Below are positions 23,180-44,748 of a DNA stretch of 64,000 bases, one piece after another. Position numbers and translations under genes: made by a program. The notes under the pieces are model-generated. The model did not search any database. It had not been told where the DNA came from and worked only from the letters and a program-made list of their open reading frames with translations. Origin of the DNA: a virus; UHGV virus genome UHGV-1353844. One strand, given 5' to 3'. Position 1 is the first letter of the stretch; every line of letters begins with the position of its first letter.

Positions 23180-23851
23180 CTATCTAAGAAAGTTTTTAGC
23201 GAAATAAGGTTCGATGTGAAACTCTTTTACGAGAGAATCATAGCCGGAGTGAATCTGATCGGAGTTGAGTAGGAAACGGCCTAGATCGTGTGGAAGTATC
23301 CAGGCGTCACCTTGTTTGAAAATAGTGTGACCTACAGTTTCTGGAGAAAGTCGAATTTCTTCCGGGAAGGGATACGTTTGTTTCAAATCAAGGTCGGTGG
23401 GTTTTAAGGTAACTAAACGAACGGGTCGTTTACTGGCCACCTCCTTAACGAACTGGTTACGATCAAACCAGATAATCTTTTCAGGGTAGCTTTCCAGCTC
23501 ACTCCAGACTTTGTTAATCACCAGATTAAAGTTGTGTTGCAGTTCCCCAGACTGGTTAGCGTAGCCTAAGCACTCTTCTACCAAAACAGGATTACCGTAA
23601 GTGTTCGTAGTACCCTGTGCAATCACACGTTGTGGGAAACAATCTTTCGGTATATCACAACCTGCATTGTACAATGCAATGATTTCCCACAATGAGCGTA
23701 AGGCAAGTTCAAGTGCTACTTCCCCGAGTGTATAGTGGTCGTCAGAATAGGGGGCTTTAAAGCCCCACTGCTGACGCGCAATTGCTGAAAAGCGTACCTG
23801 GATATAACTCGGTGCCATCGATAACGCTTGACTAAAAACAATCAGCATCAA
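23180..23851 (-). CDS. Hypothetical protein (223 aa)
   Basis: ORF; ATGA overlap with upstream RNase H gene. Confidence 0.5.
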   Translation of the reverse strand: MMLIVFSQALSMAPSYIQVRFSAIARQQWGFKAPYSDDHYTLGEVALELALRSLWEIIALYNAGCDIPKDCFPQRVIAQGTTNTYGNPVLVEECLGYANQSGELQHNFNLVINKVWSELESYPEKIIWFDRNQFVKEVASKRPVRLVTLKPTDLDLKQTYPFPEEIRLSPETVGHTIFKQGDAWILPHDLGRFLLNSDQIHSGYDSLVKEFHIEPYFAKNFLR

Positions 23852-25359
23852 AGTTCCTTATCGGTCAATATTCGTTTGTTTGAATAATAACCACACCACA
23901 GACCGTGATACTTCTCACCGATATACACTAACGCGTATTCAACGTACTGACGTTCTGGACGACGTACAGCGACGTAGAATCGTCCATTCGGTTCTTTGAT
24001 ACGGTTGATTTCCGTACGCGTCGGTAGGTCGATAGCGCGTGTCAAAATAGTTTTAACGCCAACCTTCCCGTTAGGGATTTTAATGGAAACGTCAAACCCT
24101 TTATCCACGTTTCGGTAAAAGTCTTTGGTGGGTTTACCTTTTTCGTCATAAAGCAAATCGGTAATGTCATTTAAGACAACGTTCGATTTGCCTTCCAAAC
24201 AGTCACGCAGCCACTCTGCCAGTTCATCACGAATGGTTACGCAGCGGTATGACAATAACGCGGGACGCAGAATACGACTGATAGACAAGTCTTCGTACAT
24301 CCACAGGTTTTTGTCTTCGCTAAAGTGCATTTTGTCAACTGGGATACCGTTAGCCGCTGCTTCCGCAAACTTCTTACGTTTTACGAACAGGTTGAACACA
24401 ACAGCGATAGGGTCAAACTGACGCAAACGTGGTACGCCCTCCCAGGCTTTAGCAGCGTGAGCGTTAACCAAATCGTAAACGTTCGTCCACGGCTCACGTG
24501 TAAACATCACACAAAACTGCGCATCAGGAATGTATTTTCCGACGAAGACAATATCGTCCTTCTGTTTTGCGTGGTTACCCCCGAACATGTAATAGAGATT
24601 TTCACCGTTTACTTTAACTGTAGGGTGCTGCTCATTTACCATCGGGTAACAGAACTTAGTTACGCAAATATCAGGAAACGCGGCAACGTTAACGCCTTCA
24701 CTGACGATTTCTTCCTGCTGTTCTTCCGGAATTTCGTCTGCCGACCAGTACGCCTGATAATCTAAGCCTTCTCCGTGTGCAGAGATGGACGATCCTTTTC
24801 GTGCCAGCCCGTCAGCCCGTTCGTTACCGTAGTGACCAGAGTGTCCTTTGATTTTAAGAACACGAATCCCTTTTCCTTCTTTCTTCAGACGTTTCTTAAT
24901 TTCCCACATCCGTTGAACCAGCTCAAGGTTTGCGATAGGGGTTCCATCAGCCCGTCGCCAGTCCCGCTTAGCCCAACCGTCAATCCAATCGTTAAACGTA
25001 TTCACAACGTAAGACGCATCGATATAGATAATGTAGTTCTTTGCAACGAACGGTGCTTTTTCGAAAACGGTTAAAAAAGCAACAATCTCTGCAACATCGG
25101 AGTGGTGGTGTTTCGGTACCGGAATAACACAGTCTACGAACTCAACAGAGTCTGGTAACGCAGGAAGTTTTTCCTCTTTGTTAATCTGGCGATAACCAGA
25201 GGTCGTAATCCCTTCGGGAATGGTAGGGTGGCGATAAACGCCACCGTCAACAATCTCTTCCTTGTTAAACAGGTAGCCGTGAATCCCACCGCCTGTTCCC
25301 ATCGGTGAGGTTAAATGGCTACCGTCGGTATAAAGTACAGCAACATCAACGTTCTTCAT
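23848..25359 (-). CDS. RNase HI-domain protein (503 aa): N-terminal type-1 RNase H domain fused to an uncharacterised C-terminal region of about 300 aa
   Basis: YTDGS at N-terminus; IDASYVVNTFNDWIDGWAKRDWRRADGTP...KIKGHSGHYGNERADGLARKG aligns with recalled E. coli RNase HI (TDSQYV...WKKRGWKTADKKP...[20 protein letters not shown]). Confidence 0.8.
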   Translation of the reverse strand: MKNVDVAVLYTDGSHLTSPMGTGGGIHGYLFNKEEIVDGGVYRHPTIPEGITTSGYRQINKEEKLPALPDSVEFVDCVIPVPKHHHSDVAEIVAFLTVFEKAPFVAKNYIIYIDASYVVNTFNDWIDGWAKRDWRRADGTPIANLELVQRMWEIKKRLKKEGKGIRVLKIKGHSGHYGNERADGLARKGSSISAHGEGLDYQAYWSADEIPEEQQEEIVSEGVNVAAFPDICVTKFCYPMVNEQHPTVKVNGENLYYMFGGNHAKQKDDIVFVGKYIPDAQFCVMFTREPWTNVYDLVNAHAAKAWEGVPRLRQFDPIAVVFNLFVKRKKFAEAAANGIPVDKMHFSEDKNLWMYEDLSISRILRPALLSYRCVTIRDELAEWLRDCLEGKSNVVLNDITDLLYDEKGKPTKDFYRNVDKGFDVSIKIPNGKVGVKTILTRAIDLPTRTEINRIKEPNGRFYVAVRRPERQYVEYALVYIGEKYHGLWCGYYSNKRILTDKEL

Positions 25360-31365: not shown

Positions 31366-31875
31366 TTAAAAGAACGGCTGGTTTGGAATCACGGCAAATT
31401 CCAGAACGAAGATGTGTTCAGGGGCATCTGCCTGACGCCAGATTTTGTGCGTAGTCGCCAGTTTCTCCAGAATCGTCAGGAAGCTACGCTGGCAGTAGGT
31501 GTTCTCACCCAACAGCAGATTCTGTAACTCTACAGTGGCTTCCATATACGCTTCTTTAAAGACCTGGTTTGGATTGTATTTACCGGTGTAGTGCCACAAC
31601 AGAACTTTCCCTTGCTCCGTGTCTTTCACACTCGGACGTAATCCGCAAATCCACAACAAGGCAAGGTTGACGTTCCAGTCAAACTCTAAACCTTCTTCTT
31701 CGTCATCACCGAAAGCCGTTTTAAGGGCATCGTAAAACTCATGACGCGTTGCAAAGTCTTCGTCGGACTTTATCTGGTCTTCGCTACTGCTACGAACGAT
31801 GCTATATACGTCCTGGGCAGTAAGTTGGGTAGCCTTAGTGATACCTTTATACCAATCGGTTACAACGATGCTCAA
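31366..31875 (-). CDS. Hypothetical protein (169 aa)
   Basis: ORF; ATGA overlap with upstream gene. Confidence 0.5.
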   Translation of the reverse strand: MSIVVTDWYKGITKATQLTAQDVYSIVRSSSEDQIKSDEDFATRHEFYDALKTAFGDDEEEGLEFDWNVNLALLWICGLRPSVKDTEQGKVLLWHYTGKYNPNQVFKEAYMEATVELQNLLLGENTYCQRSFLTILEKLATTHKIWRQADAPEHIFVLEFAVIPNQPFF

Positions 31876-32585
31876 AGGGTGACTCCTTGTTTAAATGGAA
31901 AACTGGTGTTTATCGTATCCCAAATTCGGTTAACTTCCGCTAACTGAATCTGGCGTTCTGGTTTCTTCGCAAACGCAAGCTGACGAGATGCTACAGGCTT
32001 GTCGATTTTCGCACTGTAGAACGTTGCATCTTTCATAAAGCTCGCCATTTCTCGTTGTGCTGCCCGAGACTTGCTTTTAATCCTGGCGTGTGCACCACTT
32101 TCACCCCAGTGATAAGCCAATGCAATTTCTGCAATAGTGGGCTTGCGTTTGAGTCGTTTAGTCAACCCCTTTTCTAAATGTTTAACGTAGACGGAAGCCA
32201 ATAGCACCGCATTACGAGGATTGTACAAATCCGCATTGCGACTAAGTCCGATTTCGGCACCGTAGAGTTTTAGCAAATTGCGCTTTGTGCTCGGTAGCAT
32301 CTGAACCAGACTGTGCGCTTTAGACGTTCGATTATACGCCTTCGGATTAAACCGTGACTCTCGATAGATTAGCGTGGTCATCAAATTAGGATCGACACCC
32401 TGCTTTCGAGAGATTTCCACAATCAACGGTTTTACCCGTTCGAAACGGTCTTGAATCATTTCGAATTCACGATGGTGTTTGGCATTGGGCGCGGATTTGG
32501 ATGCGTATGCGTTAAACGCGAAAAGTGTTACCAGTAAAAGAAAGAAAATACGAAACATACTAGTTCTCCAGTTGGATTTATACAT
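31872..32585 (-). CDS. Secreted lytic transglycosylase (SLT domain) with N-terminal signal peptide (237 aa); candidate endolysin or periplasmic muralytic enzyme
   Basis: Signal peptide MFRIFFLLLVTLFAFNAYA; SLT motifs YRESRFNPKA (ES motif), SLVQML (GLMQ-like), AYHWGESG (AYNxG-like). Confidence 0.6.
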   Translation of the reverse strand: MYKSNWRTSMFRIFFLLLVTLFAFNAYASKSAPNAKHHREFEMIQDRFERVKPLIVEISRKQGVDPNLMTTLIYRESRFNPKAYNRTSKAHSLVQMLPSTKRNLLKLYGAEIGLSRNADLYNPRNAVLLASVYVKHLEKGLTKRLKRKPTIAEIALAYHWGESGAHARIKSKSRAAQREMASFMKDATFYSAKIDKPVASRQLAFAKKPERQIQLAEVNRIWDTINTSFPFKQGVTL

Positions 32586-32658: not shown

Positions 32659-33183
32659 CTATTTAAAAAGGTTTGGAATTAAAGGTTTTGCTTCTTGGTA
32701 AAGCGTATCGGGTAAATAGAAACAGTATTGTTGTCTCCTTGGTACGAGTTTCTTTTCGATAAACAAAAAGATTTGTTGACGTTCAGCTTTTGTCAACCAA
32801 CCGTTAGCCATCCCTAACGGCGGTAAAGCCACCCCACCCTCTAAGTTTTCTGCGGCATCTGCCAACGCGGTGATACCCGCGATAACATAAGAAACCTGGG
32901 ATTTCAGTTTCCAATGTGTTTTTGTTGGTAAGAGAATGCAGTTTTCCTCGGGATAAACGTACACATTCCCTATTCGTATTTCGTTAGCGAAGCAACGTTC
33001 TCGGTAGTCCTGATAAAGCTCAGGATAGCGTTCTCTGCACGCTAAAGCGATACCCCGACCCATTGCCCCTACGCAATTTATCGTAACGACCTTGAAGCGC
33101 TCAGGGGCGTTAAACAGGTCGTTGTCAATAACCGATTCTGGAAGTATCGTTAGCATAACGGTCTTACCGAGTGAGGTAAGCAT
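32659..33183 (-). CDS. Stand-alone macrodomain protein of the DarG/TARG1-type ADP-ribosyl hydrolase clade (174 aa)
   Basis: Motifs VVTINCVGAMGRGIALACRERYPELY, LPTKTHWKLKS and GVALPPLGMANGWL match recalled DarG macrodomain blocks ([50 protein letters not shown]). From memory, not a search. Confidence 0.55.
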   Translation of the reverse strand: MLTSLGKTVMLTILPESVIDNDLFNAPERFKVVTINCVGAMGRGIALACRERYPELYQDYRERCFANEIRIGNVYVYPEENCILLPTKTHWKLKSQVSYVIAGITALADAAENLEGGVALPPLGMANGWLTKAERQQIFLFIEKKLVPRRQQYCFYLPDTLYQEAKPLIPNLFK

Positions 33184-33256: not shown

Positions 33257-33631
33257 TTAACGATTCCTTTTCACCCATTGACTGATAACGGACTCTAGCC
33301 CTTCATGCTCGAGACCGAGGCGTTTCATGGCAAGGTGCAATTCCAGCGTGTGCGTAATCTGTTCTCGGGTTTGGGCGTCGTTCATCTTCTCCCAGACCTT
33401 CTCCAGATTAATGTTAAATCTTGACAGCATATACGCTTCACGACACGCACCACGACGCCACAAACTCGGTTTAACGAACGGTAATTCGATTTCTGGAATC
33501 AGCCACAGTAGTTTATTAACCCGCGTAAGTTCACTGCCACCGATTTCGTGACACTGATAACAGATTTGTAAGATGTCGCTGTTATCCAGTGGTTCACTAA
33601 ATAGGTACGGGGTTTGGGTTCCTGGTAACAT
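33257..33631 (-). CDS. Hypothetical protein (124 aa)
   Basis: ORF downstream of macrodomain gene region. Confidence 0.45.
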   Translation of the reverse strand: MLPGTQTPYLFSEPLDNSDILQICYQCHEIGGSELTRVNKLLWLIPEIELPFVKPSLWRRGACREAYMLSRFNINLEKVWEKMNDAQTREQITHTLELHLAMKRLGLEHEGLESVISQWVKRNR

Positions 33632-33833
33632 CTGGATTCTCCTTAGGCTCGAAAGGTGATTCAGGTGGCAGCGTTCCTAACGCGCCTTGAATACAGGCCG
33701 TCAGTTCAGGTTTACCAAAACACACCTGACCGATCTTGCCCACGTTGGGATGCTGGAGAAATGCTTTTGCGCGTTCGTATTCTTTCCAGCAAATGCTTGT
33801 ATCCATTCCACCTACACCGAAACTGTTTAACAT
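33597..33833 (-). CDS. Possible small protein (78 aa); overlaps start of 33257-33631 by 35 nt
   Basis: ORF only; no strong RBS seen. Confidence 0.25.
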   Translation of the reverse strand: MLNSFGVGGMDTSICWKEYERAKAFLQHPNVGKIGQVCFGKPELTACIQGALGTLPPESPFEPKENPDVTRNPNPVPI

Positions 33834-33899
33834 AAGTAGCTCTCCTGACGTAAAAATCTCACACTCATAGTGAGGAACGTCAAGAGAGCCTTTATTGTT

Positions 33900-34343
33900 T
33901 TAGAAAGTTTTGCTGAAATCCACCCATTCTTTATCGTGAGAATAGGTTGCTTTGTAGCCACGACGAATGAAATACTCTTTCGCTTCTTTGCACTTCGTGT
34001 ACATCCCAATGGCAATTTCACCGAATGCTTCATCAGCGGCTATCGCTTTGAAGATTTCTTTCATTACCCCGCGCTGACGGTAATCAGGCAGCACGTATAA
34101 CGAACGAATTTTGAGTACCCCGTTGCGATTACGGTAACTGCAATAACCTACCGCAACATCGTCGATATAAATCAGAACAACACAGTTGCCTTCGATCAGT
34201 TGACGCACGTTTAATTTCGGTACAGCGGTTTTGATTTTCAGCATCGTTGCTTGGTGATCTAAGTAACGGTAATGGAGTGCGAGTAAATCTTTCGCTTGTT
34301 CTTCACCGATTTTAGAAAGTGCGTTCAACAAATAAATTTCCAT
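33900..34343 (-). CDS. GNAT-family N-acetyltransferase (147 aa)
   Basis: GNAT motif A region LYVLPDYRQRGVMKEIFKAI. Confidence 0.55.
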   Translation of the reverse strand: MEIYLLNALSKIGEEQAKDLLALHYRYLDHQATMLKIKTAVPKLNVRQLIEGNCVVLIYIDDVAVGYCSYRNRNGVLKIRSLYVLPDYRQRGVMKEIFKAIAADEAFGEIAIGMYTKCKEAKEYFIRRGYKATYSHDKEWVDFSKTF

Positions 34344-34375
34344 TTATCAGACCTTACAGACGCAAAAAGATGAAA

Positions 34376-34504
34376 TTAAAACCAACGTCCAATGATAAAA
34401 GCGGCTGCGGCGAGAAGCAGTACGGTAATAAAACCCGCACCCCATGTTAGTTCCGCGTTATATAAAGCGCCGATTGCAGCATTGGTAGTATTGACAACAG
34501 TCAT
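34376..34504 (-). CDS. Small hydrophobic peptide (42 aa, MTVVNTTNAAIGALYNAELTWGAGFITVLLLAAAAFIIGRWF), not in ORF track
   Basis: Hand translation; GAGGG RBS 6 nt upstream of ATG; one predicted TM helix. Confidence 0.3.
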   Translation of the reverse strand: MTVVNTTNAAIGALYNAELTWGAGFITVLLLAAAAFIIGRWF

Positions 34505-34554
34505 GGTTTTCCCTCGTAAAACGCCCTCCCAGTTACCCAGGAGGGGGTTCTAAC

Positions 34555-34665
34555 TTAACTGTGCGTAGAGCCTTTGAAAGCCCATCCGTACTTATTAATC
34601 AGCCAGTTGAGAGATTTCCCAATAACCCACAACGACCCAAGTGTTAACAGAATACCCTCAATCAT
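34555..34665 (-). CDS. Small membrane-associated peptide (36 aa, MIEGILLTLGSLWVIGKSLNWLINKYGWAFKGSTHS), not in ORF track
   Basis: Hand translation; ATG overlaps TGA of the upstream 66-aa ORF (ATGA coupling); GGAGGG upstream. Confidence 0.3.
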   Translation of the reverse strand: MIEGILLTLGSLWVIGKSLNWLINKYGWAFKGSTHS

Positions 34666-34862
34666 GACTTCCCTCCAACACACCGCCACTCACATTCGCG
34701 TTGGTGCCAAATTGAACCCCAGGCGAGTCTAATCGCGTACGCTAAGACCACCCATAAAATCGCCGTTATACAAAATAGCACGTACAGAATGGCAACCAGC
34801 ACCATGACGCTAAACCCTAAAACGCTTAGTAACTGACGCCACCAATCAGTTTGCGTAGACAA
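34662..34862 (-). CDS. Small membrane protein (66 aa) with two hydrophobic segments; overlaps 3' end of the SbcC-like gene
   Basis: LLSVLGFSVMVLVAILYVLFCITAILWVVLAYAI; 17-nt overlap with upstream gene. Confidence 0.4.
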   Translation of the reverse strand: MSTQTDWWRQLLSVLGFSVMVLVAILYVLFCITAILWVVLAYAIRLAWGSIWHQRECEWRCVGGKS

Positions 34863-37350
34863 TTTTTACTCCTTCGTTGTAAACCGCAGGCAGTGTTACG
34901 CCTTCAGGTTCAATAACACAGTATGCGGCTTCGTTAAGTTTTGAATGAATTTCTGCTTCGTGAGATACCACCAGTAACTGAGAGAACTCACCGGAATTCG
35001 CCAGGGTTTTAATAAACCCGACAAGATTATTTCGGTGTTCCTCATCCATCCCTTCTGACGGTTCATCCAACAGTAGCGGATACTGATGAAGTTTCAGGGC
35101 TTTGTAAGCGGTTAAACGAAACATCAAATTAAAGATGGCCCGCTGCGCTTTCGACCCTTTCCGCACGTCAGGTACCGGTTCAGGATGAGTTTTCAACTGC
35201 ACTGGGAACGTGTAGTCTAAGTCACCGTCGGTTAAGTCACACGGCATGACCCGCATAGGGTAGGTCCAGACTTGTTCGATATATCGCGTCATTAATTCTG
35301 TGATTCTCACGATAGCGTTGTAGAAGTATTTGCGTAATACCCCTTTCTCGGGCGAGAACGCTTGAATCATCAGCTTGTTATTAAATTGCTGCGCTTGTAA
35401 ATCCGATAACTCCTTTTCTAACGCAGTAAGTTGGTTGAGTTCGTTTTCCATCTGACGGTACCTTTCCCGTGCTGTGGTGAACGCATCCAACTTGTTTTCT
35501 CGGGCGTTTAATAACGTTTCGACCACCGTGTTGGTTAATGTTACCTTAACGTCGTTCTCTAAACGCTCAAAAACCGCATTAAAATTGTCTACAGTGACTT
35601 TAAGTTCGTTTAGATAACAAAAGGTATCATTAGCAACTGCGTGCTCTCTACGGCGCTCTGAGAGCGTTTCTGTTGCCTTACCCAAACGTTCCTGCTGGAA
35701 GGCAATTTTCTGCTGTAGTGCACCGTCAACGTTACCTACCGCTGCAACCGCATTTTCCCACTCTTTTTCCGCTTTAGCAAAACGCTGTTTCGTTTCGTGG
35801 TACTCAATTGCGGAATAAAGTTCACGATCGAACTCTGCGCACAGACTGCCAAACTGACTGCGGTTATCCGTAAAGACATTCCGCTCCTGGAGACGTTTAA
35901 AGAACAAACTCAATACCGGGTCTTTCGAGTATGTTAAAACGATTTCCCGTACTTGACGCATGTAATTAACGTCCGACTCTAATTCCGTACGGTCTCGCAA
36001 TACGGAATCAAGTTGAGTCTGTAACGTATTACGTTGCTCCATTTGTCCACGAATGGCTTCTTCCAATTCAGGCAAAGAACGACGGACACCCGGACGGAAT
36101 TTAAATTGACACTGCGGACAATCAACCTCGGCGGTTTCCAAATAGTGATTCCGTTCGTGGTTGAGATTCTGCAATACATTTTCAACACGCTGTAACCTGT
36201 CACGCAACCCAGATGAGTTTTGGTCTAAGGTCAACAGTTTCTCTTCCAGTACGTTCAACCGCTCCGTTGACTTAATAGCATCCAGTGTTGTTCCTAAACG
36301 TTGTCCCCAGACACGCGCATCGGTTGCTGCTTTAAGCTGGTCGATGTTAACGGTCTCTGCAAACAGTTCAGGGAAAAGGTGCTCAGTGTCCCACTGCTTT
36401 ATTAACTCGCGTAGTTTCGCAACCGTGTTTTTTAACCCCTCGTGATTCCGCATCAGGTAATCTTGGCGAGTGGACTCGTCCATCAACAAAGACAAATCTT
36501 TGTTTAGCATGGATAGTTCTGTTTCAGCAGAGACCACCGCTTCACGGGCAGTGGCTTCAATCCGTCGTGCTTCCTCTACTTGTTCTTCCGTAGGTAATCC
36601 GCCACGGTGTTCCAAGATAGCATTAATCGGTGCTTCGATTTTAAGCAATAGCGATTGAATCGTTGCCACCGTAACGTCACGATTCAGACCAGGCAGTTGT
36701 TCAATCTGTTTGTTGAGTTCACGTAAATCCGCTTCTAACGCTTTTAACCGCGTTGCTAATTGCTGACGTTCCTCTTCGTTATCAATTACGCGGGTACGCA
36801 ACTCTGCAATCTTGCGGCTGGTGATTTCAATACCACCGTTTAGCATCGTCAGGTTTTTTCGTAAACGTTGATAAAAACCTAACGCGTAAGTTAAGTCTGA
36901 CGTACTTAAACGGTAGAACCACTTACGGCGCAGTTCCGTTCCTGCATCCGTTAAAAGCACTTCCCCGTTCAGTAACTCTTTAATCTCTTTTGTAATGCCC
37001 GTGATTTCTTCTACGCGAGAGTTATACACTTTCGCATTACCTTGCTCGACGATTTTGGTACCCGTCGTCAGGTTCTCGATATCGCAAACCAATGAGTTGC
37101 CTTTACGTGCAACCTTAAATTTGTAACGATGGTCGTTAACCAAACAGATATTGGTGTAAGAACCCCCGTCACGGAATTCGGATTTCGAAGGTGCGATAGG
37201 TAGAAACACGGACAGTAAGCTGGTCTTACCGCAGCCGTTACCACCGAGGATAATGGTGGTTGGGGAATGGATAGTAAAATCGAAGGTTTCGATTTCGTGT
37301 AACCCCATTCCGGTAAATCCTTTAAGTACAATACGTTCAACTTTTAACAT
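34846..37350 (-). CDS. SbcC/Rad50-like SMC-family ABC ATPase with long coiled coil and CxxC zinc hook (about 834 aa from ATG at 37350; track start GTG 37368)
   Basis: Walker A GGNGCGKTS; central CPQC hook; C-terminal LLLDEPSEGMD (Walker B/D-loop) and VVSHEAE (H-loop); GGAGG RBS before ATG at 37350. Confidence 0.7.
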   Translation of the reverse strand: MLKVERIVLKGFTGMGLHEIETFDFTIHSPTTIILGGNGCGKTSLLSVFLPIAPSKSEFRDGGSYTNICLVNDHRYKFKVARKGNSLVCDIENLTTGTKIVEQGNAKVYNSRVEEITGITKEIKELLNGEVLLTDAGTELRRKWFYRLSTSDLTYALGFYQRLRKNLTMLNGGIEITSRKIAELRTRVIDNEEERQQLATRLKALEADLRELNKQIEQLPGLNRDVTVATIQSLLLKIEAPINAILEHRGGLPTEEQVEEARRIEATAREAVVSAETELSMLNKDLSLLMDESTRQDYLMRNHEGLKNTVAKLRELIKQWDTEHLFPELFAETVNIDQLKAATDARVWGQRLGTTLDAIKSTERLNVLEEKLLTLDQNSSGLRDRLQRVENVLQNLNHERNHYLETAEVDCPQCQFKFRPGVRRSLPELEEAIRGQMEQRNTLQTQLDSVLRDRTELESDVNYMRQVREIVLTYSKDPVLSLFFKRLQERNVFTDNRSQFGSLCAEFDRELYSAIEYHETKQRFAKAEKEWENAVAAVGNVDGALQQKIAFQQERLGKATETLSERRREHAVANDTFCYLNELKVTVDNFNAVFERLENDVKVTLTNTVVETLLNARENKLDAFTTARERYRQMENELNQLTALEKELSDLQAQQFNNKLMIQAFSPEKGVLRKYFYNAIVRITELMTRYIEQVWTYPMRVMPCDLTDGDLDYTFPVQLKTHPEPVPDVRKGSKAQRAIFNLMFRLTAYKALKLHQYPLLLDEPSEGMDEEHRNNLVGFIKTLANSGEFSQLLVVSHEAEIHSKLNEAAYCVIEPEGVTLPAVYNEGVKIVYAN

Positions 37351-37406
37351 GTCCACCTCCATATTCACGGAGCGTGGTGTAAAAAGAAAAAAAATAAAAG
37401 AGAAGG

Positions 37407-37428
37407 GAGAGAACCCGAAGGTTCTCTC
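37407..37428 (-). terminator. Terminator hairpin (GAGAGAACC-CGAA-GGTTCTCTC) preceded on + strand by a long A-tract
   Basis: After end of gene at 37435; coordinates approximate. Confidence 0.55.
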
Positions 37429-37434
37429 GCGGTA

Positions 37435-38043
37435 TTACGGCTGGTAGAGTTTGTAACCCATCTCCTGCCAGTTTTGGATATTTTTCGATTGCTCAACCCA
37501 AGCCTGGCCTGCATCTGACGCAACAACTTCCATCGTCAGTAAACAAATCAGATTGGTAACGGGAACACATTTCCCTGGTGTAACGTCATCCAAATACACC
37601 GGATACAGATATGGCGATTTGATGCTTTGGTACGGATAGGAATAATGTGTTCCTGCAACCCAACCTTCTTCCACTGGGCAGAGGTTAAAGGTACGCGTTT
37701 CTGGGATTTCCCCTTCAGAGATCCAATTTACAACGTCGGCCTTAATACGCCCGTTGTCGATGTAGTAGAACACAACACGTTGTGGGATACCTGCACCCCC
37801 GGTAGGGTCTATTGCTTCCAGCGCTTTAAACGGTGTGGTGTTCAACGTAGTACGGTTATCTAACGCGTACATTAGCTTTTCGTAAGCGGTTGGTGTTTTA
37901 CGTTCAAAATATGCTTTCAAACGCGGGTACGCTAAGAACCCTTCTACTTCTTCTTCCATCAAATCAATAAATAACGGAGAGTGTGGATTAGCTTCGTTTT
38001 GACGCATCGCTTCAATAAAACGAACCAAAGTAATTTCGTTCAT
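37435..38043 (-). CDS. Hypothetical protein (202 aa), monocistronic unit between two terminators
   Basis: ORF. Confidence 0.5.
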   Translation of the reverse strand: MNEITLVRFIEAMRQNEANPHSPLFIDLMEEEVEGFLAYPRLKAYFERKTPTAYEKLMYALDNRTTLNTTPFKALEAIDPTGGAGIPQRVVFYYIDNGRIKADVVNWISEGEIPETRTFNLCPVEEGWVAGTHYSYPYQSIKSPYLYPVYLDDVTPGKCVPVTNLICLLTMEVVASDAGQAWVEQSKNIQNWQEMGYKLYQP

Positions 38044-38070
38044 GTTTCAGTTTCCTTGGGCAAAAAAGAA

Positions 38071-38089
38071 GCCCCGTACACAGCGGGGC
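38071..38089 (-). terminator. Terminator hairpin (GCCCCG-loop-CGGGGC) with A-tract
   Basis: After end of gene at 38098; coordinates approximate. Confidence 0.5.
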
Positions 38090-38097
38090 CGGGCTAA

Positions 38098-38574
38098 TCA
38101 CAGCCCTAAGTGCGTGAGTGATAAGATAGGCTGTGAGACACCCTGGATAGTAGCGTGGGAACGATACATTTCAGCGTTGGTTGAGAATACCTCGTTAGCG
38201 ATAATGCATTCACCCGTCTCTAAAGATAGGAGATAAATGTAATCGCTCCATACGCTTTGTACCAAGACCCACTCTAAGGATGGACCACAGTCTGATGTTG
38301 CTTGCAAATAGTGGAAATAAGGACGTATCGCATCCACCGCCGCATTAAAGCGACGATGATAAATTCGAGTTAAGTCAAACGACCAAATTGTTTCCAGATC
38401 AATAGGGCGTAAAGTACGCACGGTTTTGATAATAGTTTCCTGGTCGTTGTGTCGTGCTGCATCAGCAATCAATAACAGTTTCCAAGCCACCGTTAAGTTG
38501 TGGCGAATATACTCAGGCTTAGCCGTCAGTTCGTGATGGAATTGGGCCGCTTGATAAACATTAGATAAACGCAT
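38098..38574 (-). CDS. Hypothetical protein (158 aa), monocistronic unit between two terminators
   Basis: ORF with TAAAGGAG RBS. Confidence 0.5.
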   Translation of the reverse strand: MRLSNVYQAAQFHHELTAKPEYIRHNLTVAWKLLLIADAARHNDQETIIKTVRTLRPIDLETIWSFDLTRIYHRRFNAAVDAIRPYFHYLQATSDCGPSLEWVLVQSVWSDYIYLLSLETGECIIANEVFSTNAEMYRSHATIQGVSQPILSLTHLGL

Positions 38575-38611
38575 TTTTAATTCTCCTTTAGGTAAAACAG
38601 GTCGTAAAAAG

Positions 38612-38642
38612 GACCCCGGACGAATCGGAACGAACCGGGGTC
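38612..38642 (-). terminator. Terminator hairpin (GACCCCGG-loop-CCGGGGTC) with A-tract
   Basis: After end of gene at 38654; coordinates approximate. Confidence 0.5.
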
Positions 38643-38653
38643 AAGACTACACA

Positions 38654-39043
38654 TCAGTAATCTAATTCGATAGCGCCTAGCATCTCACCGCGTTCTTCGA
38701 TGACGATAAGATGACGGTCACGTGATTTGCTTTTCGCAAGCGTTAGTACAACTGTGGGGTCACACGTTTTGGTCGTTACAGGAAGCACCTCTTTTGCTAC
38801 AGCGTCAAGTACGAAATAATAACCCGCAGGGCAGGTTGTTCCGCCGTCTGCTTTTACGAGTATATAGCGTCCATCTGCGCCAACTTCTTGGCACTCGCCT
38901 GCATCGCCTTCGCAGACTTCAAAACCCGGTGGGTTGTAGTGATAGTCTGTGTTCGTTGCCGGGGTAAGTAATAAATCGTCGATGTGTGTAGAAGCCATAA
39001 CTCCGATTGAGAAAAACGCCAACAAAGCGCAGATAAGACGCAT
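38654..39043 (-). CDS. Secreted small protein (129 aa) with signal peptide and several Cys
   Basis: MRLICALLAFFSIGVMAS signal-like N-terminus; CEGDAGECQ, CPAGYY, KTCDP. Confidence 0.5.
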   Translation of the reverse strand: MRLICALLAFFSIGVMASTHIDDLLLTPATNTDYHYNPPGFEVCEGDAGECQEVGADGRYILVKADGGTTCPAGYYFVLDAVAKEVLPVTTKTCDPTVVLTLAKSKSRDRHLIVIEERGEMLGAIELDY

Positions 39044-39053
39044 GGTTTACTCC

Positions 39054-39464
39054 TTAGATTTTAAGTTTGTCCTGAGCGACAACGATGGGTGCTCCAGAGG
39101 TGTCGATAACACCTACAGTCGGCACACCATTTTTGATTTTGAAGAACGGTTTGTTTTCGCCTGAACACAGTTGGTTGTCTTTGTATTCAATTTTCTGTGC
39201 TTTCCAAGTTTCCAGATTGAGCACCGACATAGGGCTGTCGTAGCACCAGGCACCGCCTTGCTCAACAACGAAAACATACCTGTTACCTTTGTATTCAAAC
39301 AAATTCTTTGTCTGGCAATACAGACCGTCAATTTCTGTGCAGTAGAATTCGTCGGTACTGTTGACGTATTTGATACCCGCCGGTAGTTTTACTGTTTTTG
39401 CTGCTACGTTAAGAGAGAACAGAACAGTTACAGCAACGAGTAAAGTTTTGATAAACGTTTTCAT
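39054..39464 (-). CDS. Secreted small protein (136 aa) with signal peptide and 4 Cys
   Basis: MKTFIKTLLVAVTVLFSLNVAA. Confidence 0.5.
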   Translation of the reverse strand: MKTFIKTLLVAVTVLFSLNVAAKTVKLPAGIKYVNSTDEFYCTEIDGLYCQTKNLFEYKGNRYVFVVEQGGAWCYDSPMSVLNLETWKAQKIEYKDNQLCSGENKPFFKIKNGVPTVGVIDTSGAPIVVAQDKLKI

Positions 39465-39479
39465 GACAGACTCCTTAAA

Positions 39480-39962
39480 TTAGTTAACCGCAGCTACGTA
39501 TTTCTTAACCAGATAGGCGAATTCATTAACGCCGATATCGCCAAACCAAACCAGATAACCTGGGTCGACGTTGTAATAGTAACCTACTACGACATGGGTC
39601 TGAGGGTTATAAAGCGTCGTGATGTATTCCCAACCACAAGCATTGCTTTTGCAAGCGGTAGACTCAAGCCAGACTTTGCCGTTGATTTGCACGGGAATAA
39701 CATCGCCGCCAGGACCATTCATTACACCATCTTTACCGAATAATCCGTCTAGTCCGACCGGTTTCAACGCTTTATCGATTGCGGCTTTATAAGTCGCATC
39801 GTCAGTATAGAGTGTGTTGATATCAGGACACGCTCCAGGTTGTTCAGCCCAGGCTTCCGGGTTACAGCTAAGTGCTTGTTTTACGGTAGCCGCTTCTGCG
39901 TTAAAGGTAAAGCCTGTGAACAGAATAGCCACGAAGAACATCAGGGTATGTAAACGTTTCAT
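39480..39962 (-). CDS. Secreted small protein (160 aa) with signal peptide and 4 Cys
   Basis: MKRLHTLMFFVAILFTGFTFNAEA. Confidence 0.5.
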   Translation of the reverse strand: MKRLHTLMFFVAILFTGFTFNAEAATVKQALSCNPEAWAEQPGACPDINTLYTDDATYKAAIDKALKPVGLDGLFGKDGVMNGPGGDVIPVQINGKVWLESTACKSNACGWEYITTLYNPQTHVVVGYYYNVDPGYLVWFGDIGVNEFAYLVKKYVAAVN

Positions 39963-39980
39963 TGTAAATTCTCCATTAAA

Positions 39981-40373
39981 TTATTCAGCGCTACGATTTA
40001 AAGTAATACGGCCAATCAGTTCTGCATTATGGAAGAAGTCCACAGCAGTATAGTTTCCGACCTCTAACGGATGAATACTGACCGACATGACTTTTGGTTG
40101 TTCGCAGGCGATATCCGTCAGACGTTGGTAGACTTGTGCACGGGTGTCGGCAATGAGTAATCCGGTACACGTTTCACCGCGTACTAAGCGATAAACTTGC
40201 AGTTTACCGAAACTGCGCATTAACGTAGGTGACTCGTCCGGGTTGATAATGGGTGAGTCAGGAGCCGGTTCGTAATGGCGGACGTCCGAATCGCCGAAAG
40301 CATAAGTGCCAGTAATACCGATTGCACAGAAAATAATGATGGTATAAAGTATAGTTCTGATATTCATTTTCAC
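39981..40373 (-). CDS. Secreted small protein (130 aa) with signal peptide
   Basis: MKMNIRTILYTIIIFCAIGITGTYA. Confidence 0.5.
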   Translation of the reverse strand: MKMNIRTILYTIIIFCAIGITGTYAFGDSDVRHYEPAPDSPIINPDESPTLMRSFGKLQVYRLVRGETCTGLLIADTRAQVYQRLTDIACEQPKVMSVSIHPLEVGNYTAVDFFHNAELIGRITLNRSAE

Positions 40374-40395
40374 GCACTCTAAAAAAGATTATTAG

Positions 40396-40857
40396 TTATT
40401 TGTTAGGACGGGTGTGTCCACAGTTCTGGAAGAAAGTTTCAGATAAACGATCGCCTTCTACGGTAAAGTTAGCGGCATCGTTACCATTGATACTCACACT
40501 GAAAGTTTTGGCATTACCGATAGCATTAACGAAAGCAACCCAAGCGAGTTCTGCTTTGTCACTACCGTCCACGGTAGGGATGTTATAGGTTTTGCCGTTT
40601 ACGACAATATCCATCGTGTTATCTTCAGCGTTAGTTGCACCTACGGGTTCCCCGTAATACCAAACCATCCGACCGTAAAATTTGCGATTCGCAGTTTCAG
40701 TGTCACAGTTGATAGACAGTCCGTTTCCGGCGGTGTCTTCGATTTCGTAAACTACCTGGCCAGGGTTTTGTATTTGTTCCCAGCTATTGATAGCGGCGTG
40801 TGCGCTATTGAGGCCGAAAGTTAAAATGGTTATTAAGAATGTGGTAAAGGTTTTCAT
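40396..40857 (-). CDS. Secreted small protein (153 aa from ATG at 40857; track start 40899)
   Basis: MKTFTTFLITILTFGLNSAHA signal-like N-terminus; AGGAG RBS 7 nt upstream. Confidence 0.5.
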   Translation of the reverse strand: MKTFTTFLITILTFGLNSAHAAINSWEQIQNPGQVVYEIEDTAGNGLSINCDTETANRKFYGRMVWYYGEPVGATNAEDNTMDIVVNGKTYNIPTVDGSDKAELAWVAFVNAIGNAKTFSVSINGNDAANFTVEGDRLSETFFQNCGHTRPNK

Positions 40858-40903
40858 TGAAATGCTCCTTCGGGTTATGGGGAAGTTCCCACAAAACATG
40901 AAA

Positions 40904-41275
40904 TTAAATAACTGTGTTGGGGAATGCTTTAATCTGCGTATAGCTATCTCCGATACCTCTTATCATCTCCAGACGTTCTTCTGTAGAAAGGCTTTGGTTA
41001 ATGTCTTTGTCAAGATTGAACAGTGTCAAGAGTTTTGCAATTGCAACCGTCAGGTTGTCGGACAGCTGGTTGTTTTTACGCCATTCTTCGTTACGGAAAA
41101 TAGAGATAAGGTCTTTCACCTGGCCTTCAGCGTGTGGTTTGGCTAACTGCGCGTCACGCTGTTCGATAAGGTATGCTTCGTTGGCAAGTAAACGTTTCAG
41201 GTCTTCTGGGTTAGTGGCAGCGCGAGTAACGATCAGTAATACAACAAACGGGTCTTTGAACAATTCGCTTTTCAT
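40904..41275 (-). CDS. Hypothetical cytoplasmic protein (123 aa), first gene of the secreted-protein operon
   Basis: ORF with TTTTAGGAG RBS. Confidence 0.5.
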   Translation of the reverse strand: MKSELFKDPFVVLLIVTRAATNPEDLKRLLANEAYLIEQRDAQLAKPHAEGQVKDLISIFRNEEWRKNNQLSDNLTVAIAKLLTLFNLDKDINQSLSTEERLEMIRGIGDSYTQIKAFPNTVI

Positions 41276-41377
41276 CGTTAATACTCCTAAAATGGTTTTA
41301 GTTAAGTGAGAGCTTTTGTACTCTCACCTAAGTAATATATATCTGAGATTATTTTTAATGTTAGAGAACAAAAAAAA

Positions 41378-41397
41378 GGTGGGGTTTACACCCCACC
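41378..41397 (-). terminator. Terminator hairpin (GGTGGGGT-TTACA-CCCCACC) after an A8 tract
   Basis: After end of gene at 41402; coordinates approximate. Confidence 0.55.
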
Positions 41398-41401
41398 GTT
41401 G

Positions 41402-41980
41402 TTAAACGTCGAATCGATACTGACGAGAATTGATTAAGAATTCTGTATTCAGTTCGATCCATTCGAGCAGGTCACCCAATTGTAAACGGCTTGGGTTTTC
41501 TATCTCGATAGTGGCAACCGGATAAGAGTTTACTAATTCCGTAATTGCCTCGATACCTTCTTGCGTTCCATCGTCTTCTAAGGTAATTATAAACGGCATA
41601 TCGGTACGCTCTGCGTTCGGGTTATACAGACTGACTTTCGTTGCCTGTACAAACGCCGAGTAATCGTCACGTATGATCCTAACGTCAGGCGATAACGTTA
41701 CCCAGAGGTGTTGTCCCGGTTGGAGTTTACGTTTTGCGTAGTTTAAGAACGGATTAGCCGGTAAGTTTTCCAAACCACTGCAAATGTTCCGTAAATGAAT
41801 TCCTCGCGGATCTTTATAGTCCACAGTGAAAATTCCTACCGGCTCACGGTCTGCCTGTTTTACCAGAAAGGCCAATACCGTGTCCGCTCTCTCTGGTAAG
41901 GAAAGCTCTATTCCCTCAAGCTCCCCATCGACGAGGTTTTCCAACCAAACGTCTTTTCTCATTTCTATTAATCGGTACAC
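41402..41980 (-). CDS. Hypothetical protein (192 aa)
   Basis: ORF. Confidence 0.5.
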   Translation of the reverse strand: MYRLIEMRKDVWLENLVDGELEGIELSLPERADTVLAFLVKQADREPVGIFTVDYKDPRGIHLRNICSGLENLPANPFLNYAKRKLQPGQHLWVTLSPDVRIIRDDYSAFVQATKVSLYNPNAERTDMPFIITLEDDGTQEGIEAITELVNSYPVATIEIENPSRLQLGDLLEWIELNTEFLINSRQYRFDV

Positions 41981-41992
41981 GGTACCACCTCT

Positions 41993-42766
41993 TTAGTTAT
42001 TGAGATTTACATCTGCGATAAACAGCAATTGTTTGCCGTGCTGCTGTACTTCTTTCCAACCTAACTTCATAGCAGTATCAACAACATCAACCATGCTGTA
42101 ACGGGACATCAAAGATTCTGATTTTGTTCCTGACATTAAGTAAAGTGGCTCATTAGGGCTACGGTCACGTGCGTCAGGAAGTTCACGTACGACTGCCGAG
42201 CCTTCGGGTGCGGTAACAACATGAATCACGGTAAATGGCCTCTTGTGCGTTAAATAGATACGAAATCCAACGTGTTCAGATTCATGAAAGATTTTCTTCA
42301 CAATCACATCTTTCAGTGTTGTTTGAACATCAGCCCCAGGCGATATCATAGACTTGCTGGAAACGAAGCAACGACTATTTTCAATCGTGGAGAAATAATT
42401 ACGTATCGGCAAACTGGCGTTATGATCGCGCAGTTTTTTGCTCAGTAGATCGAAGTTCAGTTCTTTAACTTTTTCTAACCACTCTTTGGCCTGTTGAATG
42501 TAATAACTACCAACAGCGCGATAAGTTAATACTTTACCTGTGCTCACTTTCCAAAGCTTGATGGTTAGTGAGTTTGGCTTATAGCGACGATACTCACCCC
42601 GCGTATGGTTGATGCGCTCGTAGCGCTCTACATCGTTAATCGGTGCAGATTCGACCGATTGTAATTGCAACGTTCGATCTAGTCTATCGGCAAATAGTAG
42701 CGACGTTAGCGGGCCTTCGATCATATACGGTTCGGTTTTAAAGATATCGTCTAAATGGACTTTCAT
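41993..42766 (-). CDS. Hypothetical protein (257 aa); member of a family with conserved C-terminal GWKxV...GxQLLFxAD motif
   Basis: C-terminus KLGWKEVQQHGKQLLFIADVNLNN. Confidence 0.5.
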   Translation of the reverse strand: MKVHLDDIFKTEPYMIEGPLTSLLFADRLDRTLQLQSVESAPINDVERYERINHTRGEYRRYKPNSLTIKLWKVSTGKVLTYRAVGSYYIQQAKEWLEKVKELNFDLLSKKLRDHNASLPIRNYFSTIENSRCFVSSKSMISPGADVQTTLKDVIVKKIFHESEHVGFRIYLTHKRPFTVIHVVTAPEGSAVVRELPDARDRSPNEPLYLMSGTKSESLMSRYSMVDVVDTAMKLGWKEVQQHGKQLLFIADVNLNN

Positions 42767-42788
42767 TTCTATTTCCTTCTTAACAAAA

Positions 42789-42807
42789 GCCGCGACTAAA
42801 GCGCGGC
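42789..42807 (-). terminator. Terminator hairpin (GCCGCG-ACTAAA-GCGCGGC)
   Basis: After end of gene at 42834; coordinates approximate. Confidence 0.45.
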
Positions 42808-42833
42808 AGTTAGAGAAAGTGTATTTTCACTTA

Positions 42834-43985
42834 TTAAAGGTCAGCAACAAACAGCAGCTGACTGCCGTACGGTTCGACAGATTTCCAACCGTAATCTTTA
42901 CCGATCGTCGTTAAATGGCCGGTATTTAACTTTTTGTCAACCATCCGCAGACGCATCATTAGCGTATTGGATTCTGCCGCATCGAGTAACAACGCAGGTT
43001 CTTTTTCAGTGCGGTCATCCGCTTTCGGGAAGAAACTGTAATATTGACTTTTGGGCAGATCGATTGACAACGTATAATTTTTCTTTGTAACGAATAACGC
43101 CATCCCTTCGAAATTGCAATCGAAACGATATTCCCAACCCGCTTCTGCTAAAACGTCTTTTAGCATTTCCATGACTTTAAGCTGGTTAACGCTGGGCAGT
43201 CGGTAGATTGCAAGACCACTTGGGAAAATGCGTATACCGTCGACGACACTATCGGTGGTCTCGTCAATAAGTTCAGGATAGCGTTGTGAGAAAATGTGTT
43301 CGCTCTTGCTTTTCTCTTCGACGTCACGAATGAATTGGGCTAATTCGTCTCTTAAGGCAGACATTTGATTTTCTCCTTTGTCTTCAATAATCAGGTGGGG
43401 TTCGCCGCTAATTAAAATGTGGTAAACGAGATCGTCGGTAGAACGGTAAGTGAGCTTGATAGCTTTATCACTTAACATTTCGTAGCGGAAGAAACTTTCG
43501 TACCAGGTCGAGCCGAAATCGTTTCGTGTGAGTTCCTGCTCAACTTTGATGGTTTTTGCTTCAAAACCAATTAACCCACTTAATAACGCGAGTTCTGGTT
43601 TAGTTAAAATAGCTGCACCGTGAAAGGACACTTGCTCAAGCTGAAAACATAAACTACTGACTTTACCGCTTGGGAAGACCTTAAACATAATCTTCCGGCC
43701 GCTACTCTTTTCTCTAACAACGAGTTTACGGTAATTTAGTCCAGAATTTGTGTAAACCTCGAACTGGTAACCTTCAATTTCTTCATCGTAAGTACAGACA
43801 TCGACAGGCGCGATAATCTCATCGTATTCACTCAGTACACAGCAGCCCAAGTTATAACCAAACAACTCGCGTTGTAATGAAGACTCGATGGTTAAGCTTG
43901 GCAGAGGCCAAGTCTGATTATAGCATCTGTCCATCAGTTCTTTTAGGATCTTGACATGTCCTGGTTTAGAAATAATATTTCGCAT
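42834..43985 (-). CDS. Hypothetical protein (383 aa); same C-terminal motif family
   Basis: C-terminus KDYGWKSVEPYGSQLLFVADL. Confidence 0.5.
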   Translation of the reverse strand: MRNIISKPGHVKILKELMDRCYNQTWPLPSLTIESSLQRELFGYNLGCCVLSEYDEIIAPVDVCTYDEEIEGYQFEVYTNSGLNYRKLVVREKSSGRKIMFKVFPSGKVSSLCFQLEQVSFHGAAILTKPELALLSGLIGFEAKTIKVEQELTRNDFGSTWYESFFRYEMLSDKAIKLTYRSTDDLVYHILISGEPHLIIEDKGENQMSALRDELAQFIRDVEEKSKSEHIFSQRYPELIDETTDSVVDGIRIFPSGLAIYRLPSVNQLKVMEMLKDVLAEAGWEYRFDCNFEGMALFVTKKNYTLSIDLPKSQYYSFFPKADDRTEKEPALLLDAAESNTLMMRLRMVDKKLNTGHLTTIGKDYGWKSVEPYGSQLLFVADL

Positions 43986-44014
43986 TTTTACTCTCCTTTA
44001 GGGTTGTTCGTTAC

Positions 44015-44572
44015 TTAAACGTTATAAGCTAAGAACAACAGTTGCTGACCGAGTTTGCGCACTGTATGCCAACCGTGTGCTTTTGCTGTCCCTACCAATG
44101 TTTCCCAGTCATCAATATCACAACCGTCCTTTTTCAGTTCTGTAAGTAGTGCCTCTGCTTCTTTATCTGTTAGTAGTATTCCTGGGTTACTTAACGTACA
44201 CGTAAGTGGGTTAGGGAAATATGCGTAGCGTCTTGCGAAAGTAAAGTTCACGAGATAACGTGCATCTCCTCTGTCTAGAAGGGTAATAACATTGCCACCG
44301 TAGAACGCACTCGTTACTTTCCATCCGGTACCGGAAAACAGATGACGGAATATTTCGGTAAAACTATCTCCGACACTATGATAATTAAGTCGTGAGAAAC
44401 GGCGTTCCCAAACCACAGCATCTCCATCAAATTCTTCAACTTGAAGACCGGTAATCATTGTACCTGGCCGGATAACGTTAGACTGTATAACGCAAGGATA
44501 ATCAAGTTGGTGTTTACCTGCACCCAGCTTAACAAACTCAATAGCTTGTTGTTTCATTTCGATAGTAATCAT
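44015..44572 (-). CDS. Hypothetical protein (185 aa); same C-terminal motif family
   Basis: C-terminus KAHGWHTVRKLGQQLLFLAYNV. Confidence 0.5.
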   Translation of the reverse strand: MITIEMKQQAIEFVKLGAGKHQLDYPCVIQSNVIRPGTMITGLQVEEFDGDAVVWERRFSRLNYHSVGDSFTEIFRHLFSGTGWKVTSAFYGGNVITLLDRGDARYLVNFTFARRYAYFPNPLTCTLSNPGILLTDKEAEALLTELKKDGCDIDDWETLVGTAKAHGWHTVRKLGQQLLFLAYNV

Positions 44573-44748
44573 GATATATTCTCCTAAAATGGAATAAGGG
44601 AGTCACTACGTTCCTCTGGGAAGAGTATGTCGGTATACTACGTATACCTCCGCTATTTATATCCGTATACATATTGCCCCCTACCCCCTACCGGTATCCC
44701 GAGTAGCAGAATAAAGGGACAATCTGTAAATTTTAAGTAATACTATGA

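Follow-up and report, generated by a model that had tools for sequence, protein, structure and literature searches.

The 64,000-nucleotide (nt) stretch of the virus genome UHGV-1353844 analyzed here (the window) contains a gene for a Rad50/SbcC-like ATPase that has no Mre11/SbcD nuclease gene beside it and is followed by three small open reading frames (ORFs), p66, p36 and p42. Is this ATPase a recombination factor whose partner is encoded elsewhere, or does it belong to an exclusion or abortive-infection module, as an earlier reading of the sequence alone had also proposed? We conclude, with a probability of roughly 0.87, that the 834-amino-acid (aa) protein serves the phage as the SbcC/Rad50 subunit of an Mre11-Rad50-type (SbcCD) complex of its own, with SbcD encoded far off. 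The ATPase gene, the small ORFs and the upstream gene all lie on the minus strand (Table 1).

The SbcC ORF runs from an ATG at 37350 to a TGA at 34846-34848. A GGAGG Shine-Dalgarno sequence precedes the ATG, 5 nt upstream, and an alternative GTG start 18 nt farther upstream would extend the product to 840 aa. The Walker A, CPQC, Walker B and H-loop motifs named in the sequence-only reading could all be located, and their key residues (G36, N38, G39, G41, K42, C411, C414, D762, E763 and H797) are invariant in an alignment of six phages with identities down to 24% (phiKZ). The signature motif, GSKAQ, is degenerate and merely signature-like. The CPQC motif sits essentially at mid-protein (residues 411 to 414 of 834), in a loop (406 to 419) between predicted helices at 362 to 405 and 420 to 474. 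In its architecture the protein is a split ABC ATPase: two long helical arms, with a CxxC zinc hook between them, connect the halves of the head, and the CxxC is a putative zinc site. Single-sequence AlphaFold2 predicts a near-continuous helix over residues 151 to 405 and 420 to 694 that is broken only by the CPQC loop, at a mean predicted local distance difference test score (pLDDT) of 44. This prediction is compatible with two arms, each about 250 residues long, that fold back on each other, with the hook at the apex of a putative antiparallel coiled coil.

Profile searches place the protein firmly with SbcC and Rad50, in agreement with its initial assignment. Among the PHROG profiles, it matches phrog_77, "SbcC-like subunit of palindrome specific endonuclease," over residues 1 to 833 (1.8e-91, 309 bits). 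A PDB profile search built from six orthologues returned archaeal Rad50 proteins as all 11 best matches (best 9.2e-9), and ABC transporters rank below them. The PADLOC profile for the Lamassu protein LmuB also matches (2.1e-16, 58 bits), followed by weaker matches to AbiLi, AriA and PtuA. Because the phrog_77 match scores 309 bits and the LmuB match 58 bits, the protein is assigned to Rad50/SbcC rather than to LmuB, and the LmuB score is at the level expected of cross-matches between ABC/SMC-type ATPases. Its resemblance to LmuB lies in the general architecture of an ABC ATPase with a coiled coil. The architecture also resembles that of Escherichia coli SbcCD and of archaeal and eukaryotic Rad50-Mre11, which share the split ABC head, the antiparallel coiled coil (here predicted) and the CxxC hook, although sequence similarity to those proteins is limited to the head motifs.

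To which phages does such a protein belong? A tblastn search with the 834-aa sequence retrieved 274 records, which are jumbo-sized (about 197 to 310 kb among the matches listed) and, where annotated, phiKZ-like. Orthologues in phiKZ-like phages align over at least 98% of the query at identities from 69% to about 22%. The closest is Erwinia phage Asesino gp207 (69%), followed by phiEaH2 and Stratton (68%) and Salmonella phage SPN3US gp186 (58%). Derbicus (45%), Vibrio phage pVa-21 (31%) and phiKZ gp165 (24% in the six-phage alignment) are farther removed. The region has no match at the DNA level among 50,697 phage records searched with megablast, and a look-up for proteins identical to the 834-aa product came back empty. 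Two IMG/VR contigs are 96.6 to 97.0% identical to the window in DNA sequence at the SbcC locus, and the window is identical to neither: IMGVR_UViG_3300045988_078609 (224,831 bp, 97.0%) and 3300014543_000002 (107,349 bp, 96.6%). The 97% identity refers to the 5.5 kb compared, and the window region involved is 33350..44585. The gene order is shared with Asesino and SPN3US, from the upstream 202-aa gene through the small ORFs to the genes for a GNAT acetyltransferase, a macro-domain protein and an SLT-domain endolysin. This synteny and the two near-identical contigs show that the window derives from a phiKZ-like member of the Chimalliviridae that has not been cultivated and belongs to the SPN3US/Asesino clade. 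Asesino is a chimallivirus that has been shown by experiment to form a phage nucleus (PMC11724907). The phage species recurs in environmental data, the near-identical contigs coming from the separate metagenomes 3300014543 and 3300045988.

We then asked where the nuclease subunit is encoded. That SbcD is not adjacent to SbcC, as first noticed, holds for the entire 64 kb, in which a tblastn search with the SbcD protein of SPN3US (gp27) gave no match at E ≤ 1. The partner is probably not missing but encoded elsewhere in the genome. Contig IMGVR_UViG_3300045988_078609 carries an SbcC that is 99.4% identical to that of the window at about 130.8 to 133.3 kb and an SbcD gene (phrog_100, 2e-63) at about 43.7 to 44.8 kb, with a spacing of about 86 kb and both genes on one strand. 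The proposal of a recombination factor with a distant partner is borne out by this contig and by the co-occurrence of the two genes across the family. SbcC and SbcD lie 86 to 147 kb apart in every complete relative examined and are never neighbors. The SbcD and SbcC genes are found at 21.0 and 168.9 kb in SPN3US, at 21.9 and 170.2 kb in Stratton, and at 55.1 and 169.1 kb in phiKZ, where SbcD is gp65. As a rule, phiKZ-like phages keep the two genes apart. Bacteria, by comparison, have sbcD and sbcC in a single operon (PMC5105663). A tblastn search recovered SbcD from 290 phage records, compared with 274 for SbcC, and the counts by host genus are equal for most genera (Pseudomonas 81/81, Serratia 21/21, Aeromonas 19/19, Klebsiella 16/16 and Ralstonia 13/13). 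Erwinia is the exception, with 62 SbcD and 46 SbcC records.

The chimallivirus SbcD protein is divergent, and we assigned it on the basis of PHROG 100, its motifs, weak NCBIfam matches to SbcD and Mre11, and the literature. SPN3US gp27 is annotated as the D subunit of SbcCD and matches PHROG 100, "SbcD-like," at 8.5e-64. Its phosphoesterase motifs are invariant in six orthologues: DxH (22 to 24), GDxxD (57 to 62), HD (101 and 102), H180 and HDH (212 to 214). Pfam Metallophos gives a weak match in all six members (E ≤ 10) that is below the threshold of that family, and SPN3US gp27 has no Pfam match at E ≤ 0.01.

Orthologues of SbcC and SbcD have been studied genetically in two phages. SPN3US gp186 is essential, as two independent single amber mutants, am39 (Q115) and am50 (Q549), attest (PMC5105663). 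In phiKZ, orf165 tolerated zero transposon insertions (bioRxiv 10.1101/2025.11.23.690004). The table of an antisense-oligomer (ASO) screen in phiKZ places "SbcC-like nuclease 165" and "Nuclease 065" above the heading "Non-core genome," and knock-down of 165 and of 065 each has an effect (PMC12571901). The window gene is orthologous to SPN3US gp186 and phiKZ gp165, which stand among the listed core genes of the Chimalliviridae. It resembles phiKZ orf165/orf065 in its invariant Walker A, CxxC, Walker B and H-loop motifs at 24% identity and in the distant location of the SbcD-like gene, about 113 kb off in phiKZ.

These data bear on two alternatives. SbcC could be an SMC-like organizer that bridges or condenses the phage chromosome alone, with the distant SbcD-like gene functionally unrelated to it. 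Such a role would suit two genes that are never adjacent in the phiKZ-like family, as well as a GenBank label that reads merely "SMC domain-containing protein" and a Pfam match to SMC_N. However, the protein has a zinc hook and not an SMC hinge domain, its best solved-structure matches are Rad50 and not SMC, the record counts of SbcC and SbcD agree for most host genera, and both genes show knock-down effects in phiKZ. We consider an organizer that works without the nuclease very improbable.

The other alternative widens the exclusion or abortive-infection module of the sequence-only reading to defense in general. In such a module, small membrane-disrupting peptides would be the effectors of an SMC-like sensor ATPase akin to Lamassu LmuB or AbiL. 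The LmuB match, the weaker matches to AbiLi, AriA and PtuA, and the hydrophobic peptides encoded directly downstream could be taken in this sense. Defense profiles, however, cross-match all ABC/SMC-type ATPases, and here the SbcC PHROG outscores LmuB by 309 bits to 58. The CxxC hook is invariant, the best PDB matches are to Rad50, and four neighboring proteins tested against PADLOC gave no match to a defense model. Unlike a Lamassu component, SbcC is listed as core, is required by SPN3US and phiKZ to grow lytically, and co-occurs with SbcD throughout the family. A defense role is extremely improbable and already close to refuted.

If the protein is the Rad50-type subunit of a phage SbcCD complex, its action would parallel that of T4 gp46/gp47, a phage pair of the Rad50/Mre11 type for recombination-dependent replication. 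SbcC would dimerize through its zinc hook and bind SbcD at the base of the coiled coil. ATP-driven closure of the heads would then enable the complex to resect or open DNA ends, and this end processing would feed UvsX-dependent recombination and replication of the genome of about 225 to 245 kb. The window encodes a UvsX-like recombinase (phrog_97, 1e-54) 17 to 20 kb from SbcC and an RNase H-domain ribonuclease (phrog_3265, 2.3e-167) 9 to 11 kb from it, and both are likely functional companions of SbcC in recombination and replication. The T4 genes 46 and 47 are clustered, in contrast to the distances of 86 to 147 kb in the relatives of this phage, and the region between the head halves of T4 gp46 is about 300 residues shorter than that of SPN3US gp186 (PMC5105663).

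Several observations weigh against our assignment of the locus. The presence of SbcD in the phage's own genome rests on its relatives, as the window spans 64 kb and the only contig that matches an exact 41-mer, 3300014543_000002, is a fragment of 107 kb. Scans of IMG/VR and metagenome contigs with the SbcD profile yielded no SbcD from metagenome 3300014543. Neither single-sequence nor profile searches of the PDB with SbcD gave a significant match, and in chimallivirus SbcD an invariant GTPSHD replaces the GNHD usual in phosphoesterase motif III of Mre11/SbcD. We found no published data on ATP-dependent nuclease activity of SbcC-SbcD for any chimallivirus. For SbcC itself, the Pfam SMC_N match scores 35.1 bits and falls under the gathering cut-off of 40. 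The AlphaFold2 model reaches a pLDDT of 82 to 89 around the hook only, and the head domains are poorly modeled. For the long coiled coil described at the outset, the prediction offers helical arms that are confident near the hook, at a low overall score. Finally, we surveyed the ORFs downstream of SbcC at 64 IMG/VR loci. Of the 17 close relatives among them, defined by an SbcC identity of at least 44%, 16 have a small, strongly hydrophobic ORF whose start falls between -17 and +9 nt relative to the SbcC stop, compared with 2 of 204 control positions. This positional conservation may leave room for a real functional link between the two genes.

The last point raises the question of what the small ORFs are. 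The sequence-only reading had described three small coupled membrane peptides, a description that proved accurate in part. Overlaps link p66 and p36 to the preceding gene, whereas p42 is merely close, following p36 without overlap after a 50-nt spacer that contains a hairpin. The maximum Kyte-Doolittle scores over 17 residues are strong for p66 (2.97) and p42 (2.48), and p36 is only weakly hydrophobic. p66 begins with TTG behind an AAGGAG Shine-Dalgarno sequence and overlaps the 3' end of SbcC by 17 nt. It matches phrog_16515 at 3e-06 and shares 40% identity with Asesino gp208 and with SPN3US gp187. Judging from these overlaps, SbcC, p66 and p36 should share a transcript, and translational coupling of the two peptide genes to SbcC is likewise expected. 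Homologues of p36 occur at the equivalent position in Stratton, phiEaH2, Asesino, pEa_SNUABM_29, SaP7 and SPAsTU. The p36-family gene is unannotated in the GenBank records of Asesino and SPN3US (positions 7689-7796 and 7680-7790 of the extracted loci). A tblastn search with p42 against all phages gave no significant match, and its homology to SPN3US gp189 is based on local comparison, conserved position and the ratio of nonsynonymous to synonymous substitution rates (dN/dS). The hairpin between p36 and p42 is possibly a weak terminator or attenuator.

All three ORFs are genuine genes under purifying selection. In two relatives, contigs with 87% SbcC identity, dN/dS is 0.25 to 0.28 for p66, 0.34 to 0.42 for p36 and 0.08 to 0.16 for p42. 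The ORFs are intact in both contigs and in the same order, with the TTG start and the 17-nt overlap kept, at 58 to 68% amino acid identity. We regard them as genuine because of these dN/dS values (0.08 to 0.42) and their intactness in relatives. They diverge faster than SbcC or the GNAT gene, and they belong to a variable cassette of membrane peptides between SbcC and the GNAT acetyltransferase gene in the SPN3US/Asesino clade. Asesino, SPN3US and SPAsTU hold two or three extra small genes in the cassette that are absent from the window (about 68 aa ending in ...PPLLRDPAYD, about 35 aa ending in ...ALTQGWF, and about 85 aa), and phages of Machinavirus and Wellingtonvirus have other peptide families there. 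The window cassette is consequently shorter than those of SPN3US and Asesino, in which these genes precede GNAT. The peptide of about 35 aa is unannotated in SPN3US and pEa_SNUABM_29.

Does the tight linkage of p66 to SbcC reflect a shared function? The small hydrophobic ORF is largely restricted to close relatives. Among distant chimalliviruses, one of 47 loci has such an ORF after SbcC, compared with 15 of 474 control positions, and neither phiKZ nor pVa-21 has a small membrane ORF there; in phiKZ, the gene after orf165 lies on the opposite strand. As 46 of these 47 distant chimalliviruses lack it, core SbcCD function needs no p66-type ORF. Genes that overlap or nearly abut are frequent all over the window, so coupling alone says little about shared function. 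The linkage is most likely an inherited compact gene order and not a shared biochemical function, because overlapping junctions are frequent, the composition of the cassette varies, and the linkage is missing where SbcCD is still conserved. In one group of distant chimalliviruses (8 loci listed), SbcC is followed by a conserved gene for a 112- to 124-aa non-membrane protein ("...FFIGAATMGEGKGKWSAPGRDLPYLYRRQW...") that starts -4 to +9 nt from the SbcC stop.

A membrane-tethered repair complex would explain the linkage differently, with p66 (the gp187 family) as a dedicated partner that anchors or regulates SbcCD, in line with the proposal for T4 gp47.1. A membrane partner was already suggested by Thomas et al. 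(PMC5105663), and it would account for the conserved 17-nt overlap, in which p66 has a TTG start and a Shine-Dalgarno sequence of its own, and for the 16 of 17 close relatives with a hydrophobic ORF at the SbcC stop, even though the peptide families differ between genera. The absence of the ORF after SbcC in 46 of 47 distant chimalliviruses, phiKZ and pVa-21 argues otherwise, as do the overall synteny of the genomes and the many overlapping junctions in the window. Moreover, phage replication and recombination take place inside the protein-shelled nucleus and not at a lipid membrane (PMC11724907). We therefore judge a p66-anchored complex unlikely. A more specific version, in which the ORF at the SbcC stop in the SPN3US/Asesino/Derbicus clade is a dedicated subunit that tethers or gates the Mre11-Rad50 complex at a membrane while the other peptides tune it, seems to us distinctly unlikely. 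Its site of action could possibly be a lipid-bounded early stage of infection or the cell envelope, before or outside the protein-shelled nucleus. The preferred reading remains an SbcCD subunit with small membrane genes as its inherited neighbors.

The arrangement, which the sequence-only reading had called unusual, turns out to be already known. Thomas et al. (2016, J Virol, PMC5105663) identified SPN3US gp186 as SbcC and gp27 as SbcD, with the genes apart, and described gp187, directly downstream of gp186, as a 63-aa predicted transmembrane protein that they likened to T4 gp47.1. The T4 gene likewise encodes a small transmembrane protein near the gp46/gp47 pair (PMC5105663), and its likeness to p66 is put forward as one of position, with no homology claimed. 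The window protein is 58% identical to SPN3US gp186 over its full, equal length and shares its motifs, its upstream neighbor family, its distant SbcD and a small transmembrane gene overlapping the 3' end of SbcC. The overlap differs in detail: it measures 17 nt for p66, which begins with TTG, and 11 nt for gp187, which begins with ATG. The locus is thus a re-observation, in a new relative, of an arrangement published for its orthologues.

Upstream of SbcC, the 202-aa gene forms a separate unit, as had been noted from the sequence. It is closed by an intrinsic-terminator-like hairpin with a T-run, a hairpin type found in all relatives examined. The intergenic layout (window 37351..37435) is common to every relative and consists of a cUUCGg-loop hairpin, a T-run, a TTTTTACGC-like sequence and a (G)ATATG motif. 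The TATG of the window lies only about 12 nt ahead of the SbcC ATG, and the leader motif may serve as a promoter for a phage RNA polymerase. Asesino, SPN3US, pEa_29 and SPAsTU have a small hairpin in the 5' leader, ACTAATACTTTTTCATTAGAAGG, which the window is without.

Table 1. Features of the SbcC locus and of other genes discussed, in window coordinates.
Feature	Position	Strand	Remarks
SbcC/Rad50-like ABC ATPase, 834 aa	34846..37350	-	phrog_77 1.8e-91; Rad50 top PDB matches; six-phage alignment
Walker A/P-loop GGNGCGKT, residues 36-43	37222..37245	-	G36, N38, G39, G41, K42 invariant in 6 phages
CPQC zinc-hook motif, residues 411-414	36109..36120	-	C411, C414, F418, P420, G421 invariant; loop 406-419
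C-terminal head motifs: GSKAQ 732-736, Walker B LLLDE 759-763, D-loop D769, H-loop SH 796-797	34960..35157	-	
SbcC 5' leader: TATG motif and GGAGG Shine-Dalgarno	37351..37368	-	promoter role putative
Intrinsic-terminator-like hairpin and T-run	37386..37428	-	9 bp, UUCG loop (37428..37407), -15.2 kcal/mol, z = -4.1
Upstream 202-aa ORF	37435..38043	-	phrog_9964 (unknown function)
p66, small hydrophobic membrane protein	34662..34862	-	phrog_16515; Asesino gp208/SPN3US gp187 family; C-terminal CEWR
p36, small peptide	34555..34665	-	phrog_13448 (1.2e-12), MIEG...GWAF.G family; ATGA overlap with p66 stop
GC-rich hairpin and short U-run between p36 and p42	34517..34552	-	-21.5 kcal/mol, z = -2.1
p42, small single-pass membrane peptide	34376..34504	-	SPN3US gp189 family, MT.VNT.NA...WLF
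GNAT acetyltransferase	33900..34343	-	
Macro-domain (Appr-1-p processing-like) protein	32659..33183	-	
SLT-domain endolysin	31872..32585	-	
RNase H-domain ribonuclease	23848..25359	-	phrog_3265
UvsX-like recombinase	16744..18240	-	phrog_97
Giant ORF, 1440 aa	47711..52033	+	
Giant ORF, 1394 aa	52044..56228	+	
Giant ORF, 1728 aa	56323..61509	+	

Downstream of the cassette, the order of the GNAT acetyltransferase, macro-domain and SLT endolysin genes is the same in Asesino and pVa-21. Elsewhere in the window, three giant ORFs stand in a row; they cross-match PHROG 7557, 8078, 7449 and 2163 (virion structural proteins) and look like a paralogous array.

As a discovery the ATPase gene carries little weight, since it encodes the core ATPase for recombination and repair that one expects in a phiKZ-like phage. 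What the locus contributes is modest. The worry over a missing partner is resolved through a near-identical genome, and the three small ORFs are established as real, selected genes. The small membrane ORF tight behind SbcC is a trait of one clade, quantified here as 16 of 17 close relatives against 1 of 47 distant chimalliviruses, and it gives a defined experimental handle on the suggested membrane-associated partner of SbcCD.

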